Position numbers and translations under genes: made by a program. A DNA stretch of 64,000 nt, taken from sequence record PQ671644.1; one strand, given 5' to 3'. The notes beneath the pieces were generated by a model. The model worked only from the letters and a program-made list of their open reading frames with translations, had not been told where the DNA came from and did not search any database. How positions within the stretch are numbered: position 1 is the stretch's first letter; each line of letters begins with the position of its first letter. Of this stretch, positions 8,994 through 61,540 are shown piece after piece. Origin of the DNA: Escherichia phage DCP80.

Positions 8994-9040
8994 NNNNNNN
9001 NNNNNNNNNNNNNNNNNNNNNNNNNNNNNNNNNNNNNNNN
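8994..9040. other. assembly gap (N-run); junction between inverted homologous blocks
   Basis: 47 Ns; flanking sequence truncates gene 39 and its downstream ORF. Confidence 0.95.
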
Positions 9041-17790: not shown

Positions 17791-17800
17791 NNNNNNNNNN
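17791..17800. other. assembly gap (N-run)
   Basis: 10 Ns; gene content changes abruptly across it. Confidence 0.95.
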
Positions 17801-24742: not shown

Positions 24743-24760
24743 NNNNNNNNNNNNNNNNNN
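24743..24760. other. assembly gap (N-run)
   Basis: 18 Ns; strand and gene content switch across it. Confidence 0.95.
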
Positions 24761-30886: not shown

Positions 30887-30940
30887 NNNNNNNNNNNNNN
30901 NNNNNNNNNNNNNNNNNNNNNNNNNNNNNNNNNNNNNNNN
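30887..30940. other. assembly gap (N-run)
   Basis: 54 Ns. Confidence 0.95.
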
Positions 30941-36510: not shown

Positions 36511-36520
36511 NNNNNNNNNN
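36511..36520. other. assembly gap (N-run)
   Basis: 10 Ns; cuts gene 34. Confidence 0.95.
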
Positions 36521-38396: not shown

Positions 38397-38664
38397 CGCA
38401 CATCTCTTTTAATTTCTGAATTTCGCCAGCAACATAGTCGGAGATAAAAATCCCTGGCTCTTCATTGTTAAAATATTCAATCGCGGCCATACGTTTCCGA
38501 ATAAGGTCCAGTTCCAGTAAAACGTAATTGCCCTGTTGGACGATAGTCGGATTATCTTCGAAAAATTCAACGGCATCTTTAATACCGTAGATGAGATTAT
38601 CTAAATCTTCTTTATGTACCTTATACATAATATGCGTCGTACCTCGCTCGTGTGATTCCAACAT
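38389..38664 (-). CDS. hypothetical protein
   Basis: 91-aa ORF between dda and dexA. Confidence 0.45.
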   Translation of the reverse strand: MLESHERGTTHIMYKVHKEDLDNLIYGIKDAVEFFEDNPTIVQQGNYVLLELDLIRKRMAAIEYFNNEEPGIFISDYVAGEIQKLKEMCDD

Positions 38665-39949
38665 AAGCCAACTGGCTCGCTAATGAAGCTTCGGCCATAT
38701 GGATGCATGGAGTATAGATGAATGCTTTGTCCACTGAAACGCCCTGGGCCTTGTGGATTGTACTAACCGGAAGAGCACGAACTTTCAAGAAGGTCCGGCG
38801 AGCTTTCCAGAAGTCTTTCCACTCTGGACGTTTACCAGCGGCTTTCATCTGTTTGTATGTGTCAGCAACTTTAGCCAGATATGCCTGGAATTTCGGTTGC
38901 TGGTCTTCTGGTAAAACTTTGATGCGGTCAACCTGATATTCTTCATCTTCATCAATTGACTCAACTTCCAGGTCCCAGTAATTAATCACTAACTGGTGCG
39001 ATTCACCTTTACAACGGAGAATTGTGGAAGTGTATTTGCAATCCTTGATGCGAACCAACTGACCATTATTAAAAATGGTTTCGCTGAATTTCTTGCCTTC
39101 AAATTCCAGCTCTTTCATGTGTGGCTCTTGCATAACCAGGACTTCATACGGTAAAAATGCTTTATCCGTTTCATAGAGCTTGCGACGAATAATATTGTTC
39201 AGTTTTTCAACTGATTTATTCGTGTACGCATACATCCTGTTTTCCATCAACATATCAGCATCTTTTACAATACCGAAATAGTTTACCATGAAATCCTTTA
39301 AAGCGGTTTGTGAGGTAAAACCCTGCACACCATGACCATCATACATACAGTCGCGGAACCAACCACCATTGCGAATTTCTGTCGCCACTTCAATGATAGG
39401 AGCATTGCTTCGCATGACTTCAGTCAGATGAATCTGTTTGAACTTAGGATGCGTAAAGAATGGGCTTATCTTTTGTTGTGTGCTTCCTGGGTCAACTGGC
39501 TGCAGCTGGTGCATATCACCAATCCCAAGAATAGTACACCATTCAGGAACAGAGTTAAGAATAATCTTAAACAGAGCCCCGTCATACATACTTGCTTCAT
39601 CACAAACCAGAACATTGCATTTTGACATGTCAGGCATTTCGCGCTGTTCAAAAACGTTTTGGTCTTCATATGTGGTCGGGTTAATCTTCAGAATACTATG
39701 GATTGTATTCGCCGTTTGACCAGACAATTTAGATAAAACTTTTTTCGCCTGGTGAGTTGGTGCAGCAAGTACAATTCCCATAACTCCATTACGCACTAAA
39801 TGGTCAATGACAAATTTTGTCAGAGTAGTTTTACCTGTACCAGCTGGACCATTCAGAGTGATACATTCCCCTGAACGTCGCTGAATAGCTTCAGTGATAT
39901 AATCAAAAGCTTCTTTTTGTCCTGTGTTCAAGTCTTCAAATTTAATCAT
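38621..39949 (-). CDS. dda: Dda DNA helicase (SF1B)
   Basis: 442 aa; Walker A GPAGTGKTTL, ...ILAAPTH.AKK.LSKLSG..A.TIHSILKINP.TYE...FEQ.E.PD...C.VL.CDE.SMYD..LFKI.L...P.WCTI.GIGD..Q..PVDPG, C-terminal ...KAQG.SVD.AFIYTPCIH.......QL.YVG.TR.RYD..YV match recalled T4 Dda. Confidence 0.9.
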   Translation of the reverse strand: MIKFEDLNTGQKEAFDYITEAIQRRSGECITLNGPAGTGKTTLTKFVIDHLVRNGVMGIVLAAPTHQAKKVLSKLSGQTANTIHSILKINPTTYEDQNVFEQREMPDMSKCNVLVCDEASMYDGALFKIILNSVPEWCTILGIGDMHQLQPVDPGSTQQKISPFFTHPKFKQIHLTEVMRSNAPIIEVATEIRNGGWFRDCMYDGHGVQGFTSQTALKDFMVNYFGIVKDADMLMENRMYAYTNKSVEKLNNIIRRKLYETDKAFLPYEVLVMQEPHMKELEFEGKKFSETIFNNGQLVRIKDCKYTSTILRCKGESHQLVINYWDLEVESIDEDEEYQVDRIKVLPEDQQPKFQAYLAKVADTYKQMKAAGKRPEWKDFWKARRTFLKVRALPVSTIHKAQGVSVDKAFIYTPCIHMAEASLASQLAYVGITRARYDAYYV

Positions 39950-40245
39950 GCCAATTTTACTCGCTTAACATATAAAGTATCTAAAACTAATTTCAATTCT
40001 CGTGCGTGTTCTTCAGTAGGAAAAACAGTTTTTGTTTCCCGCTTATCAAACCACCATTTTCTGGGAATATACCGTGTTTCAATACGTCCCATGCGTAAAT
40101 AGCGGTTTGTAGTATATGAATAGTTGGCAAGTTCATACTCTGCGCCCGGTTTTGTGGTGTATAAGGTAACCTTTCCATCATACTCCAATGGGCGTTCAAA
40201 ACCATCTTTATCTTTGTGGACCAGCACATATGCGTAGTACATCAC
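39946..40245 (-). CDS. hypothetical protein
   Basis: 99-aa ORF, ATGA overlap with dda. Confidence 0.45.
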   Translation of the reverse strand: MMYYAYVLVHKDKDGFERPLEYDGKVTLYTTKPGAEYELANYSYTTNRYLRMGRIETRYIPRKWWFDKRETKTVFPTEEHARELKLVLDTLYVKRVKLA

Positions 40246-40246
40246 A

Positions 40247-40990
40247 TTAACCTCTAATCAGTTTAAAAATTGACGCGTTCAAAGGTAGACCTTTTTTCAG
40301 TTTAAGGCGGTCAATGAATGACAACTTATCTAAACGCTCCAGACCTTGAATAATTTTATCATACATATCGTAACGCGTTTCAGCGTCAGATGATTTCATT
40401 TTCAGACGCCAGTCAGGACCACCCATAACCATTTTCAGCCCGCGTTGACTAGTTCCGATGGAAGCCATTTGTCCATGGATACGAGCCTTGACTGCAATCA
40501 CAGAAGGGGTGGTATCTTTAGCGCCACTTTTATAAAGCTCTTTTAAATGTTTTTGACGCTTCTTGATTCCACGTTCGGTATCTTTAATATTTTTAACAAT
40601 TTTGCGAATTTTATAATAGTCAGCAGGAGTTACTTTAAAACTATTGGGCATCTTAGAACCGCCATTAATACGCACCGCCAAACGAGTCTGCGCACGTTTA
40701 AGTTCATCAAGAGATAAATCAGCACGTAAACCGTTGTACTTAGTTTTGACAGGGATAACATTGCCTTCAATATAACCTATATCATTGTTAAAGCGTTCAA
40801 AGGAAACTTTATCTTGAGTTGAATTTTCATCAAAACGTTCACCAGAATACGCACAGAATTCTTGTTTCAAAAGATTGGCGATATACTTACTAGACAGATT
40901 GAAATCCTTGTTACGACGTTTTGCAGACGTTTTGGTATGCTCGCGACGTTTGTAAACTTTCAATTCAAACTCTTCTTTTGACATATTCAT
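40247..40990 (-). CDS. Srd-like protein (position-based)
   Basis: 247-aa ORF between modA-like gene and dda, where T4 srd sits; some resemblance to recalled Srd (SAKRRNKDFNLSSKYIANLL...CAYSG..FD.....DK.SFER.NND.GY..GNVIPVK..YN) and C-terminal LKLKKGLPL. Confidence 0.45.
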   Translation of the reverse strand: MNMSKEEFELKVYKRREHTKTSAKRRNKDFNLSSKYIANLLKQEFCAYSGERFDENSTQDKVSFERFNNDIGYIEGNVIPVKTKYNGLRADLSLDELKRAQTRLAVRINGGSKMPNSFKVTPADYYKIRKIVKNIKDTERGIKKRQKHLKELYKSGAKDTTPSVIAVKARIHGQMASIGTSQRGLKMVMGGPDWRLKMKSSDAETRYDMYDKIIQGLERLDKLSFIDRLKLKKGLPLNASIFKLIRG

Positions 40991-41146
40991 GATATTTTTC
41001 TCATCTTACGGACGATTGAAAACTCAGTATGGATTCATTATACACTATACATCTTTTATGTACACTACTTTTTAGCCTTTAACGCTTTTATTTTTACTGT
41101 GTATAATGGTTCTAAGGTCTTTGGCCTTTTGTTAACCCAGAATACT

Positions 41147-41659
41147 TCAGTAAGAAAGAACGGAAAGATTCCATAATTTATAGTCTTCCCATCTATAAAT
41201 GCTCTCAATAGAGTCCACGCGTAGCGTAGTTCCCGCAGGGAACATCATCTCATCTTCATCATTTACTAATTGTAAGTTTGAAGAACGAGTTATTTCAGGA
41301 TATAGTCCGTTGAACTCTTCAGGAGGTGCCGCACAAATCATTTTAAAAATCGCTTCCTGATAATCAAATGCGAATGGTGCATCATTAATACAGAAAATAT
41401 TTTTGGTTCCATAGAAGCTAAAGGAAGCAAAGTTACGCGCAACACTGAAATCTTTGGAGAAACTCATTACACGGTCAAACTCAATCGTAGCACCAACACA
41501 TCCTACGGTTTCAAGATATGCCAAAGTTTTCTTAGAAATCCCGCGATATAACTTACCAGGCACAGCAGAAGTCAAATTCTTACGAATAATTTTGTTCAAA
41601 GTTTCCTGGATAGTGTCTGGCTTATTTTCCATGCACTGCCAGAGTGTACTCTGTTCCAA
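41147..41659 (-). CDS. ADP-ribosyltransferase, ModA/ModB-like (R-S-E class)
   Basis: 170 aa; KLYRGIS (Arg), SFS/FSFYGTK (S-x-S), NDEDEMMFPAG (E-x-E-like); position upstream of srd-like gene as in T4 modA. Confidence 0.5.
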   Translation of the reverse strand: MEQSTLWQCMENKPDTIQETLNKIIRKNLTSAVPGKLYRGISKKTLAYLETVGCVGATIEFDRVMSFSKDFSVARNFASFSFYGTKNIFCINDAPFAFDYQEAIFKMICAAPPEEFNGLYPEITRSSNLQLVNDEDEMMFPAGTTLRVDSIESIYRWEDYKLWNLSVLSY

Positions 41660-41759
41660 CTCAGAGTAAATTTCATCAATTTCAATCTGGGTATTTTCGC
41701 GAAAATATTCACATTTAACTGCATTGATGTACTCTGCTAATTGGTGACTTGCGTACAGC

Positions 41760-41800
41760 NNNNNNNNNNNNNNNNNNNNNNNNNNNNNNNNNNNNNNNNN
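41760..41800. other. assembly gap (N-run)
   Basis: 41 Ns. Confidence 0.95.
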
Positions 41801-41818
41801 TGGGTCAAAACAAACATA

Positions 41819-42178
41819 TTAACCTCGCTTCATGAAGGCATTAAAAATCTGGTCATCAATATCAGTAGGCGGTTCTTGAGCTTTGACCCAAGCCCCTTCC
41901 AGAATGTCATTTGCTTCAGTAGATATCATGACCCCAATTTCAGGGTTTCCGGTTATCCATACTGCACAATCGCGGACATTCTTTTTATCAAATGGATAAC
42001 CACGATTATCTTCACAAGGCCCATTCATTGTCATAAATGAACGAGCCTTTATGATAACATCATCTTTAACGATAATATAACCAATCGCCTGATTATAACG
42101 AGGCTCACGAAATTCATAGTGAGCATTACCATTATTATTGCTCACCAGTTCAAAATTCAGAAAATTATAATAACTCAT
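41819..42178 (-). CDS. hypothetical protein with shared C-terminal module (copy 2)
   Basis: 119 aa, homolog of 24912-25271. Confidence 0.5.
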   Translation of the reverse strand: MSYYNFLNFELVSNNNGNAHYEFREPRYNQAIGYIIVKDDVIIKARSFMTMNGPCEDNRGYPFDKKNVRDCAVWITGNPEIGVMISTEANDILEGAWVKAQEPPTDIDDQIFNAFMKRG

Positions 42179-42179
42179 A

Positions 42180-42620
42180 TTAATCTCGCTTCATGAAGGC
42201 ATTAAAAATTTGGTCGTCAACTGAATATACAGGGGTTTCCAGAAGTTTCAAAAGACTGTTTTTAATGTACTTACCCGGGATACCCATATTAACAATACTG
42301 TCATTCAATTCATTATCAGGGTTGATGTCTTTAAATTCAAACCCATCAAATTCAACCTTGTCAGGAATACCATCAGCGAAAAAATAAACCAATTGGTGCA
42401 TTGTATTGCGCGAAAATAATTTAGACTTGACCGCAATAAGTTCTTGCCAATGGTTTAATTCTTTGTTAAGAAGTTTATGAGCAAACGTAATTCTATTATC
42501 ACTATCAACAAGAAAATAACCCAGGTATTGAATGGGTTCGTCGCTCCAAAACATCCTGTATGCTTGTGCATTTTGATTTTTACAACGAAGTTTTTTGATA
42601 ACTAGAGTTCTGTTAATCAT
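42180..42620 (-). CDS. hypothetical protein with shared C-terminal module (copy 2)
   Basis: Homolog of 25273-25707 with two in-frame indels (DEPIQY vs DEIQY; VNMGIPG vs VKGIPG). Confidence 0.5.
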   Translation of the reverse strand: MINRTLVIKKLRCKNQNAQAYRMFWSDEPIQYLGYFLVDSDNRITFAHKLLNKELNHWQELIAVKSKLFSRNTMHQLVYFFADGIPDKVEFDGFEFKDINPDNELNDSIVNMGIPGKYIKNSLLKLLETPVYSVDDQIFNAFMKRD

Positions 42621-42621
42621 T

Positions 42622-42915
42622 TTATTCACCTGTAACCCATTGAACAATCTTGCTGTTGTCAAATGAAGCATCGCAATACAGAACATAGTTATACTGCATA
42701 ACATCACCAGAAGTCAATTGGTCAGATACTTCTTTAACCATATCAGGACGGTCACGTTTAGTAATATTCATGATGTCAGCATAAATCTGATGTTCAACAT
42801 CAGCCTGGTCAGCAGTCATGGACCACTCGCAAAGGTCTTTATCAAGTCCAGCAGTAACTGGAGCTGTGCCACATGATGCTACGGTAAGAATTGCTGCGAT
42901 TAATAACTTTTTCAT
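42622..42915 (-). CDS. sp: Spackle-like periplasmic protein (copy 2)
   Basis: 97 aa, homolog of 25709-26002. Confidence 0.6.
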   Translation of the reverse strand: MKKLLIAAILTVASCGTAPVTAGLDKDLCEWSMTADQADVEHQIYADIMNITKRDRPDMVKEVSDQLTSGDVMQYNYVLYCDASFDNSKIVQWVTGE

Positions 42916-42973
42916 TTCAATCTCCTCAGTAGTTGATAGGGATAATATACTGCATTATCCCTATGTTGTACAC

Positions 42974-43177
42974 TTATTTTTCGTTAGAACGATAATCATA
43001 TTCAAAAACTTTATTGTCATTAACAAAGGCTTTAACCAGTGCATTATTCACTTCTGCATACTGCACTGTAATCCATTCAATCATATTTTTGTCACTGACA
43101 TCTAGCGCGGTTTCTTTGGTAAACATATTACCATTTTCAAACCAACCAATAAACACTACGTTCTCTAATTTATACAT
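42974..43177 (-). CDS. dmd: Dmd-like antitoxin (copy 2)
   Basis: 67 aa, homolog of 26063-26266. Confidence 0.5.
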   Translation of the reverse strand: MYKLENVVFIGWFENGNMFTKETALDVSDKNMIEWITVQYAEVNNALVKAFVNDNKVFEYDYRSNEK

Positions 43178-43495
43178 TTAGATTTCCTCACAAAACGCCC
43201 AGGCGGCGTGATAAACTGTTGCACCTTTAGTGTCATTTAAACAAACCACGTCAACAGGTGCAATCACACGATAAAGACGGGGTTCTCCTCCATATGAGCG
43301 AGCTGCTCTTCCTGCATAGATACGCGCCAAACCAATATCTTCAGTAAAAAACACACGCCCTAAATTTTTCTTACGCCCAACTTCTGACAGAACACCAGTT
43401 GCATCAGGAGGACAAAGCATATTTTGGATTCCAGCATTAGAGCTTGAGCCATGATAATAAACTTTGTATTCTGCCTTGCAATCAATGGTTTTCAT
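43178..43495 (-). CDS. PARP-like-motif small protein (copy 2)
   Basis: 105 aa, identical in translation to 26267-26584. Confidence 0.35.
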   Translation of the reverse strand: MKTIDCKAEYKVYYHGSSSNAGIQNMLCPPDATGVLSEVGRKKNLGRVFFTEDIGLARIYAGRAARSYGGEPRLYRVIAPVDVVCLNDTKGATVYHAAWAFCEEI

Positions 43496-43563
43496 TTTAT
43501 TCTCCAGTAGTTGATAGGGTCATTATAACATAAGAAAAAGGGGCTTACAGCCCCTTTGTTCAC

Positions 43564-43866
43564 TTACGCCAACTCATAGTTGTGCATAGTCAGACAACGA
43601 ATTTTCCCAGTAGTTGGGTGCATAACAGTCACACTAATTGTGTAATCATCACACACGTTAACAAAAGGTTCGGCGATAACATATACTGCCCCACCTGCCA
43701 ACAGGTACTCACGAAGAGAGCTGCGAACAGATGAAGGTTGAACATCGCTTTTGAGCTTTATTAATTTACCAGTTTGAATGCCTGATGCGATAAGAGCAGC
43801 ACAGTTTTCATCACGGCGAGCGAACTGACCAAAATAGTAACGGTTCATATCGGTTTGATTAAACAT
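43564..43866 (-). CDS. hypothetical protein (copy 2)
   Basis: 100 aa, homolog of 26653-26955. Confidence 0.45.
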   Translation of the reverse strand: MFNQTDMNRYYFGQFARRDENCAALIASGIQTGKLIKLKSDVQPSSVRSSLREYLLAGGAVYVIAEPFVNVCDDYTISVTVMHPTTGKIRCLTMHNYELA

Positions 43867-43944
43867 ATGGTTTTCCTTTTAACAGTTGGTTTATTGTGTA
43901 ACTCAGTATGGAATCATTATGTCCTAAGACAAGGGGCTTGTACA

Positions 43945-44193
43945 CTATTTTAATTCATTAATTAAATGAAAATCTTGTGCATTGAAAGTAATGAAAAAAT
44001 AATCATTCCCTTCAACTGAAGCATGACAGGCAACACTACACCAGCGCCTTGCTCTGTTCAAGGAGCAATCCAAAATTTTAAAAGGCTTCAGACCAACAAT
44101 GGCAGCTGTTCTTTTATTATGCTCACAAATATCAGCATACTTTTGGAGAGCTTCTTCAGATTTGAACTGGTAATGCACATTAACTAATAACAT
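43945..44193 (-). CDS. hypothetical protein (copy 2)
   Basis: 82 aa, homolog of 27034-27282. Confidence 0.45.
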   Translation of the reverse strand: MLLVNVHYQFKSEEALQKYADICEHNKRTAAIVGLKPFKILDCSLNRARRWCSVACHASVEGNDYFFITFNAQDFHLINELK

Positions 44194-47030: not shown

Positions 47031-47080
47031 NNNNNNNNNNNNNNNNNNNNNNNNNNNNNNNNNNNNNNNNNNNNNNNNNN
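47031..47080. other. assembly gap (N-run)
   Basis: 50 Ns. Confidence 0.95.
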
Positions 47081-52285: not shown

Positions 52286-52300
52286 NNNNNNNNNNNNNNN
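52286..52300. other. assembly gap (N-run)
   Basis: 15 Ns; joins gene 47 to an unrelated late-gene block. Confidence 0.95.
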
Positions 52301-57004: not shown

Positions 57005-57040
57005 NNNNNNNNNNNNNNNNNNNNNNNNNNNNNNNNNNNN
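57005..57040. other. assembly gap (N-run)
   Basis: 36 Ns. Confidence 0.95.
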
Positions 57041-61504: not shown

Positions 61505-61540
61505 ANNNNNNNNNNNNNNNNNNNNNNNNNNNNNNNNNNN
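61505..61540. other. assembly gap (N-run)
   Basis: 36 Ns. Confidence 0.95.

Follow-up and report, generated by a model that had tools for sequence, protein, structure and literature searches.

The minus-strand gene at 41147..41759 of the window, a 64,000-nucleotide stretch of Escherichia phage DCP80 (PQ671644.1), very probably encodes a member of the Mod family with ADP-ribosyltransferase chemistry, as its homology, invariant catalytic motif, predicted fold and synteny all indicate. The gene is already known: identical or nearly identical genomes of other phages carry it under the name modA or ADP-ribosylase. The gene, its downstream neighbours and the run of undetermined bases that cuts it off are placed as follows:

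38621-39949, minus strand: Dda helicase, in a T4-like early region
39946-40245, minus strand: Dda.1/Y01A, in the same T4-like early region
40247-40990, minus strand: srd, downstream neighbour of the Mod gene (PHROG 1400 'Srd anti-sigma factor', E 2e-89)
41147..41759, minus strand: coding sequence of the Mod-family ADP-ribosyltransferase (open frame; SP18/P896 identity; PHROG 832)
41760..41800, no strand: run of 41 N that cuts off the start of the Mod gene (N-run listing; alignment to P896 and SP18)

Judged by its nucleotide sequence, the window is from an SP18-like Gaprivervirus (Tevenvirinae), with 99.5% DNA identity to Escherichia phage P896 to the left of this gap and 99.4% to Shigella phage SP18 to its right. 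The order of dda, dda.1, srd and the Mod gene matches that in T4, SP18, P896, VR5 and HX01, and the syntenic position of the Mod gene is fixed because srd is its downstream neighbour; the synteny is visible on the srd side, the upstream side lying behind the gap. The Gaprivervirus relatives SP18, P896, P479 and vB_EcoM_RZ have the same gene with the same neighbours (srd, dda.1 and dda), but in the window copy, unlike those of SP18 and P896, two bases of the ATG and everything upstream are replaced by the N-run. Residues 3-136 of Srd also match PHROG families of endonucleases, HNH endonucleases and endonuclease VII (E 2e-15 to 2e-4), which suggests that this 'anti-sigma factor' has an HNH/EndoVII-like N-terminal module.

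The Mod protein of the window is identical at 204/204 positions to residues 12-215 of SP18 modA (YP_003934644.1), and the two genes agree at 610 of 613 nucleotides, all three differences being synonymous. A single substitution, A66V, separates the window protein from that of P896; the 'ADP-ribosylase' proteins of P479 and RZ (vB_EcoM_RZ) match it at 100% identity, and an identical 204-aa cluster is present in a large protein database as 'ADP-ribosylase [Escherichia phage P479]'. Homologues were found by tblastn in 1075 phage records, ten of them with at least 99% identity and annotated ADP-ribosylase or modA; the srd-proximal gene is named modA in SP18 and VR5.

The first-pass annotation had described a 170-aa ORF upstream of the srd-like gene. 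The ORF is real and lies directly upstream of srd; its length and start were wrong. It ends at 41147, and translation in the same frame shows it open for 203 codons back to the N-run at 41760-41800, making the TTG at 41659 an internal codon of the Mod ORF; the shorter length arose because the program listing ORFs begins each at the first codon that resembles a start. What can be read of the coding sequence runs from the final base of codon 1 through codon 204 to the stop (41147-41149); the other two bases of the ATG fall in the N-run. The 203 readable codons and the lost ATG give a single-domain protein of 204 aa, the same size as its P896 counterpart (95203-95817, 204 aa; window 41759 corresponds to P896 95815). 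In P896 as well as SP18 a GAGGA stands 7 nt before this ATG, and the SP18 annotation of modA begins at an in-frame ATG 11 codons farther upstream, giving 215 aa. The earlier impression that the protein is shorter than T4 ModA was an artefact of the gap: at 204 aa it stands between T4 ModA (200 aa) and T4 ModB (207 aa).

The right edge of the gap (window 41801) corresponds to P896 101428 and SP18 17626, and the 41 Ns stand in for approximately 5.55-5.6 kb relative to these two genomes. In SP18 and P896 the interval contains a ModB-like gene, modA.2, modA.3, srh, mrh.1/.2, soc, gene 56, gene 61 and 61.1. Gene 56 encodes dCTPase and gene 61 primase. The ModB-like gene, a second Mod gene of 186 aa annotated 'ADP-ribosylase', lies immediately upstream of the Mod gene in both relatives and inside the gap interval, and on this alignment the partner gene of the window is masked by the gap rather than absent. 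That only one Mod gene had been seen before the gap was likewise an artefact, the second gene of the relatives falling within the ~5.55 kb that was replaced. That the second Mod gene has truly been deleted was considered and rejected, as the same interval holds the essential genes 56 and 61 in SP18 and P896, and their presence there argues that the gap is missing data.

The window contains ten N-runs of 10-54 bases, set ~5-9 kb apart, and the last position of each is a multiple of 20:

8994-9040
17791-17800
24743-24760
30887-30940
36511-36520
41760-41800
47031-47080
52286-52300
57005-57040
61506-61540

The remaining runs may also conceal kilobases, and gene adjacency across any of them is not to be trusted.

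Two readings would deny the region a working transferase gene. With the start codon and upstream region outside the readable window, the gene could in principle be a degenerate or inactive Mod paralogue (a pseudo-enzyme), or be disrupted by a real 5' lesion under the gap. This is very improbable, since the catalytic residues are all intact and invariant in the family alignment, the 203 codons contain neither stop nor frameshift, and the protein is 100% identical to that of SP18 with only synonymous differences between the genes; a disruption also fits poorly with the joint absence of the essential genes 56 and 61 at the gap, which points to lost data instead. Still further from credible is a chance origin of the ORF, with an antisense ORF on the plus strand, at 41199-41360 or 41454-41669, as the true feature. 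Such ORFs, of 53 and 71 aa, do overlap the Mod region, but the minus-strand product has strong homology, a confidently predicted fold and family-wide conservation, whereas nothing supports either plus-strand ORF and an Rfam scan of 40000-44000 matched no RNA family in the region.

The assignment of the minus-strand product as a ModA/ModB-like ADP-ribosyltransferase, first made from the letters alone, held up, with PHROG 832, BLASTP to T4 ModA and ModB, the alignment of the R-S-ExE motif and the predicted ADP-ribosyltransferase (ART) fold in agreement. The HMM search proposed as a check on the ART family returned phrog_832, 'RNA polymerase ADP-ribosylase', in the PHROGs profile search at E 4e-42. 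In BLASTP the protein has 38% identity to T4 ModA (NP_049635.1) over 153 aa (E 8e-21, 72.8 bits) and 36% identity to T4 ModB (NP_049636.1) over 154 aa (E 4e-25, 84.3 bits), and the catalytic R-S-ExE positions line up in both, as had been anticipated. The alignment to T4 Alt, suggested at the same time, did not bear out: the Mod profile against Alt was not significant in hhalign (probability 0.3%, E 0.19) and covered the ExE region only.

Searches with the single Mod protein against local Pfam (E<=1), NCBIfam and PDB sequences gave no match, and for the C3/VIP2-like Pfam family ADPrib_exo_Tox the protein was not above the gathering threshold and had no match at E<=1. All homologues have a precomputed assignment to Pfam family PF26816.1, a family absent from the local Pfam result for the window protein. 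In a profile search the Mod family is compact, with 137 of 1.84 billion cluster representatives at E<=1e-3, and at its weak end it takes in proteins fused to MuF and others that carry ADPrib_exo_Tox. A profile search of the PDB gave only sub-threshold matches (E 0.4-2), to XopAI and VsdC/VahC at the ExE region.

The motifs quoted in the first-pass annotation, KLYRGIS, MSFS/ASFSFYGTK and NDEDEMMF, are present in the minus-strand ORF exactly as given. As candidates for the R-S-E arrangement, the arginine in KLYRGIS, the glutamate in NDEDEMMF and the first SFS were confirmed; FSFYGTK is not the serine motif. The three elements, read from the sequence, are:

41540..41548, minus strand: Y72-R73-G74 (tat cgc ggg), in KLYRGIS
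41456..41464, minus strand: S100-F101-S102, the 'STS'-type serine motif, in VMSFSKD
41249..41257, minus strand: E169-D170-E171, the ExE motif, in NDEDEMMF

R73, G74, S100, E169 and E171 are invariant in family alignments of 9 and 22 sequences, and S100 and F101 are both invariant in the larger one. The 22 sequences include members down to 26% identity to the window protein, and the motifs are therefore not due to chance, the R, G, S, E and E columns remaining invariant over that range. The corresponding residues in the family alignment are:

Window Mod protein: R73 / S100-F-S102 / E169-D-E171
T4 ModA: R72 / S96-A-S98 / E163-Q-E165
T4 ModB: R73 (R73-G74) / S99-F-T101 / E171-Q-E173

An E-x-E rather than a Q-x-E motif is the signature of arginine-specific R-S-E transferases. 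By this correspondence R73 would be the NAD-binding arginine of the R-S-E motif and E171 the catalytic glutamate, with E169 as the residue characteristic of transferases that act on arginine. The R-S-EXE motif is stated for this transferase family in PMC10468400, in which the ModB double substitution R73A/G74A is catalytically inactive, and PMC11404850 gives ModA E165A as catalytically dead.

The protein is also predicted to have the R-S-E ADP-ribosyltransferase fold. An AlphaFold2 model built from the 22-sequence alignment has a mean pLDDT of 92.2 and a pTM of 0.86, and its top Foldseek matches in the PDB are all R-S-E ARTs (E 2.5e-7 to 1e-5, probability 1.0, TM 0.4-0.5), including HopU1, XopAI, Plx2A, C3bot, Certhrax, VahC, CDTa/iota Ia, Tre1 and ExoS/T. 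No Mod-family protein was among the matches in either PDB search; among predicted viral structures the model comes closest to ModB from Serratia phage CBH8 (TM 0.88), followed by ModA from Shigella phage Sf22 (TM 0.85). The C3/VIP2-type R-S-E toxins (HopU1, C3bot, Certhrax, iota Ia/CDTa and ExoS/T) have the same fold as that predicted here and the same catalytic triad, but the resemblance is at TM 0.4-0.5 and 10-18% identity, and the window protein is without their secretion, translocation and binding components. The kinship of Mod to ADPrib_exo_Tox is visible only through the predicted fold and intermediate sequences.

T4 Alt, a head-packaged ART of 682 aa, belongs to the same superfamily, its E575-M-E577 lines up with E169-D-E171, and PHROG 832 pools it with the Mod proteins; it differs from the window protein in being three times larger and in entering the host together with the injected DNA. 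Membership of the Alt family was rejected on size (204 aa against ~680 aa) and for want of significant sequence similarity.

Within the Mod family, two genes are present in Tequatrovirus, Mosigvirus (HX01), Dhakavirus (VR5) and Gaprivervirus, and one in Moonvirus, Jiaodavirus, Mosugukvirus and Kanagawavirus. The T4 order is srd, modA, modB, and the Mod gene of the window adjoins srd; being srd-proximal, as modA is in T4, it corresponds to modA by position. A bootstrapped NJ tree unites the srd-proximal genes of the window, VR5 and HX01 in one clade with 100% support; this clade joins T4 ModA at a bootstrap of only 62%, and the pairwise BLASTP score is somewhat higher against ModB. In P896 the distal paralogue is nearer ModB than ModA (81 vs 52 bits), and summed scores prefer the pairing of proximal with ModA and distal with ModB (154 vs 137 bits). 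The similarity is unevenly distributed along the protein: residues 35-102 have 32/68 identities to ModB against 23/68 to ModA, while residues 103-136 and the ExE region are nearer ModA (DEDEMMFPAG in the window, DEQEVMIPAG in ModA). The gene is accordingly regarded, with moderate confidence, as the orthologue in the modA slot; the choice of ModA over ModB is weak. T4 ModA shares with it the srd-proximal slot, a similar size, the R-S-ExE motif and a similar C-terminal catalytic region, but overall identity is 33-38%, and the N-terminal helical region is less like ModA than ModB. T4 ModB has R73-G74 at identical residue numbers and the segments EQSxLWQCME and LYRGISK in common with the window protein, but holds the srd-distal slot, which in SP18 and P896 is occupied by the separate 186-aa gene, a better ModB match.

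These opposing similarities leave some weight on a protein with the same fold and chemistry but a ModB-like function, which would modify S1, EF-Tu, trigger factor and L2 and might RNAylate, using NAD-capped RNA. The higher BLASTP score to ModB (84.3 vs 72.8 bits), the near identity of EQSTLWQCME and LYRGISK to EQSVLWQCME and LYRGISK of ModB, the closeness of residues 35-102 to ModB and the label 'modB' given to close homologues in UniRef and some GenBank records all point that way. The N-terminal motifs do not discriminate, however, because they represent the consensus of the whole family and it is T4 ModA that has drifted away from it, and for the same reason a chimeric (recombinant) ModB/ModA origin is unnecessary. 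The gene also occupies the modA slot next to srd, ModB is matched better by the other paralogue in the relatives, the summed scores prefer that pairing, and the catalytic C-terminal part is nearer ModA, so that a ModB-like function is on balance unlikely, if worth keeping in view. Position speaks against orthology to ModB, since the gene abuts srd and the distal slot of SP18 and P896 holds the gene nearer ModB. Somewhat more doubtful still is that the srd-proximal clade of Gaprivervirus, Dhakavirus and Mosigvirus represents a functionally distinct third Mod type, an idea that arises because its members are 33-38% identical to both T4 Mods and join an N-terminal helical region resembling that of ModB to a catalytic half resembling that of ModA.

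To the right of the gap lie the following genes:

41819-42178, minus strand: ORF downstream of spackle (sp)
42180-42707, minus strand: adjacent ORF, also downstream of spackle
42974-43177, minus strand: dmd, downstream of the 105-aa ORF
43178-43495, minus strand: conserved 105-aa protein (phrog_2110, 'unknown function'), its stop abutting the dmd start

The two ORFs downstream of spackle end in the same tail (DDQIFNAFMKRG and DDQIFNAFMKRD) and occupy the adfA/61.2 position of T4 and RB69. The tail is that found at the C-terminus of AdfA: Pfam AdfA, anti-DarT factor A (T4 gp61.2), matches only the last 14 residues, at E 1.5e-4 and below cut-off. The two ORFs may represent AdfA-like anti-defence genes that have diverged or been split and have a functional C-terminal peptide in common. 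An RB69 adfA primer in PMC11257639 decodes to ...IFNAFMNRG*.

In the 105-aa protein H15-G16 and Y60 are invariant and E103 is near-invariant. The best match of its AF2 model (pLDDT 84.5) is Arr, the rifampin ADP-ribosyltransferase, and is weak (E 0.039, probability 0.98, TM 0.53); KptA/Tpt1, RES and ParT also match the model, which weakly suggests a minimal H-Y-E-type ART fold. A pair of 'p0068-family ART toxin + Dmd antitoxin' was predicted by Iyer et al. 2022 (PMC9503650), and the 105-aa ORF with dmd fits that prediction. If this p0068-type reading is true, the phage has a further ART-fold gene besides its Mod genes.

Promoter and terminator scans around the Mod gene and in SP18 gave sites no more frequent than in shuffled sequence. 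The Mod stop and the srd start are 156 bp apart, and in this spacer TGTACA-16 nt-TATAAT at 41037-41064 on the minus strand (10/12 match) is placed to drive srd independently and is conserved in SP18, but is no commoner than in shuffles and only a lead. A TTTACT-17-CATAAT site upstream of SP18 modB likewise has a match frequency no higher than shuffles.

By analogy with the family, the window protein would be a 204-aa single-domain NAD+-dependent arginine-specific mono-ADP-ribosyltransferase of the R-S-E clade, probably made early. R73 and S100-F-S102 would bind and position NAD+, E171 would stabilise the oxocarbenium-like transition state once nicotinamide leaves, and E169 would steer transfer to the arginine guanidinium of a host protein. 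The target of T4 ModA is Arg265 of RNA polymerase alpha, with the attendant contact loss and shift in transcription (PMC2988021), whereas T4 ModB acts on S1, L2, EF-Tu and trigger factor, both by ADP-ribosylation and by RNAylation. By position the likeliest target of the window protein is Arg265 of the RNA polymerase alpha subunits, an assignment for which the chances appear about even. If the protein is ModA-like, both alpha C-terminal domains would be modified, abolishing contacts with UP elements and activators, and transcription would shift away from host and early promoters.

The main yield of this analysis is a set of corrections to the annotation: a protein of 204 aa, a serine motif at S100-F-S102 and a partner gene behind a gap of ~5.5 kb. 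The label 'RNA polymerase' ADP-ribosylase is, for the srd-proximal clade, an extrapolation from a T4 protein with 33-38% identity. Should this clade be a third Mod type, its target set or its capacity for NAD-RNA (RNAylation) would be unlike that of T4 ModA.
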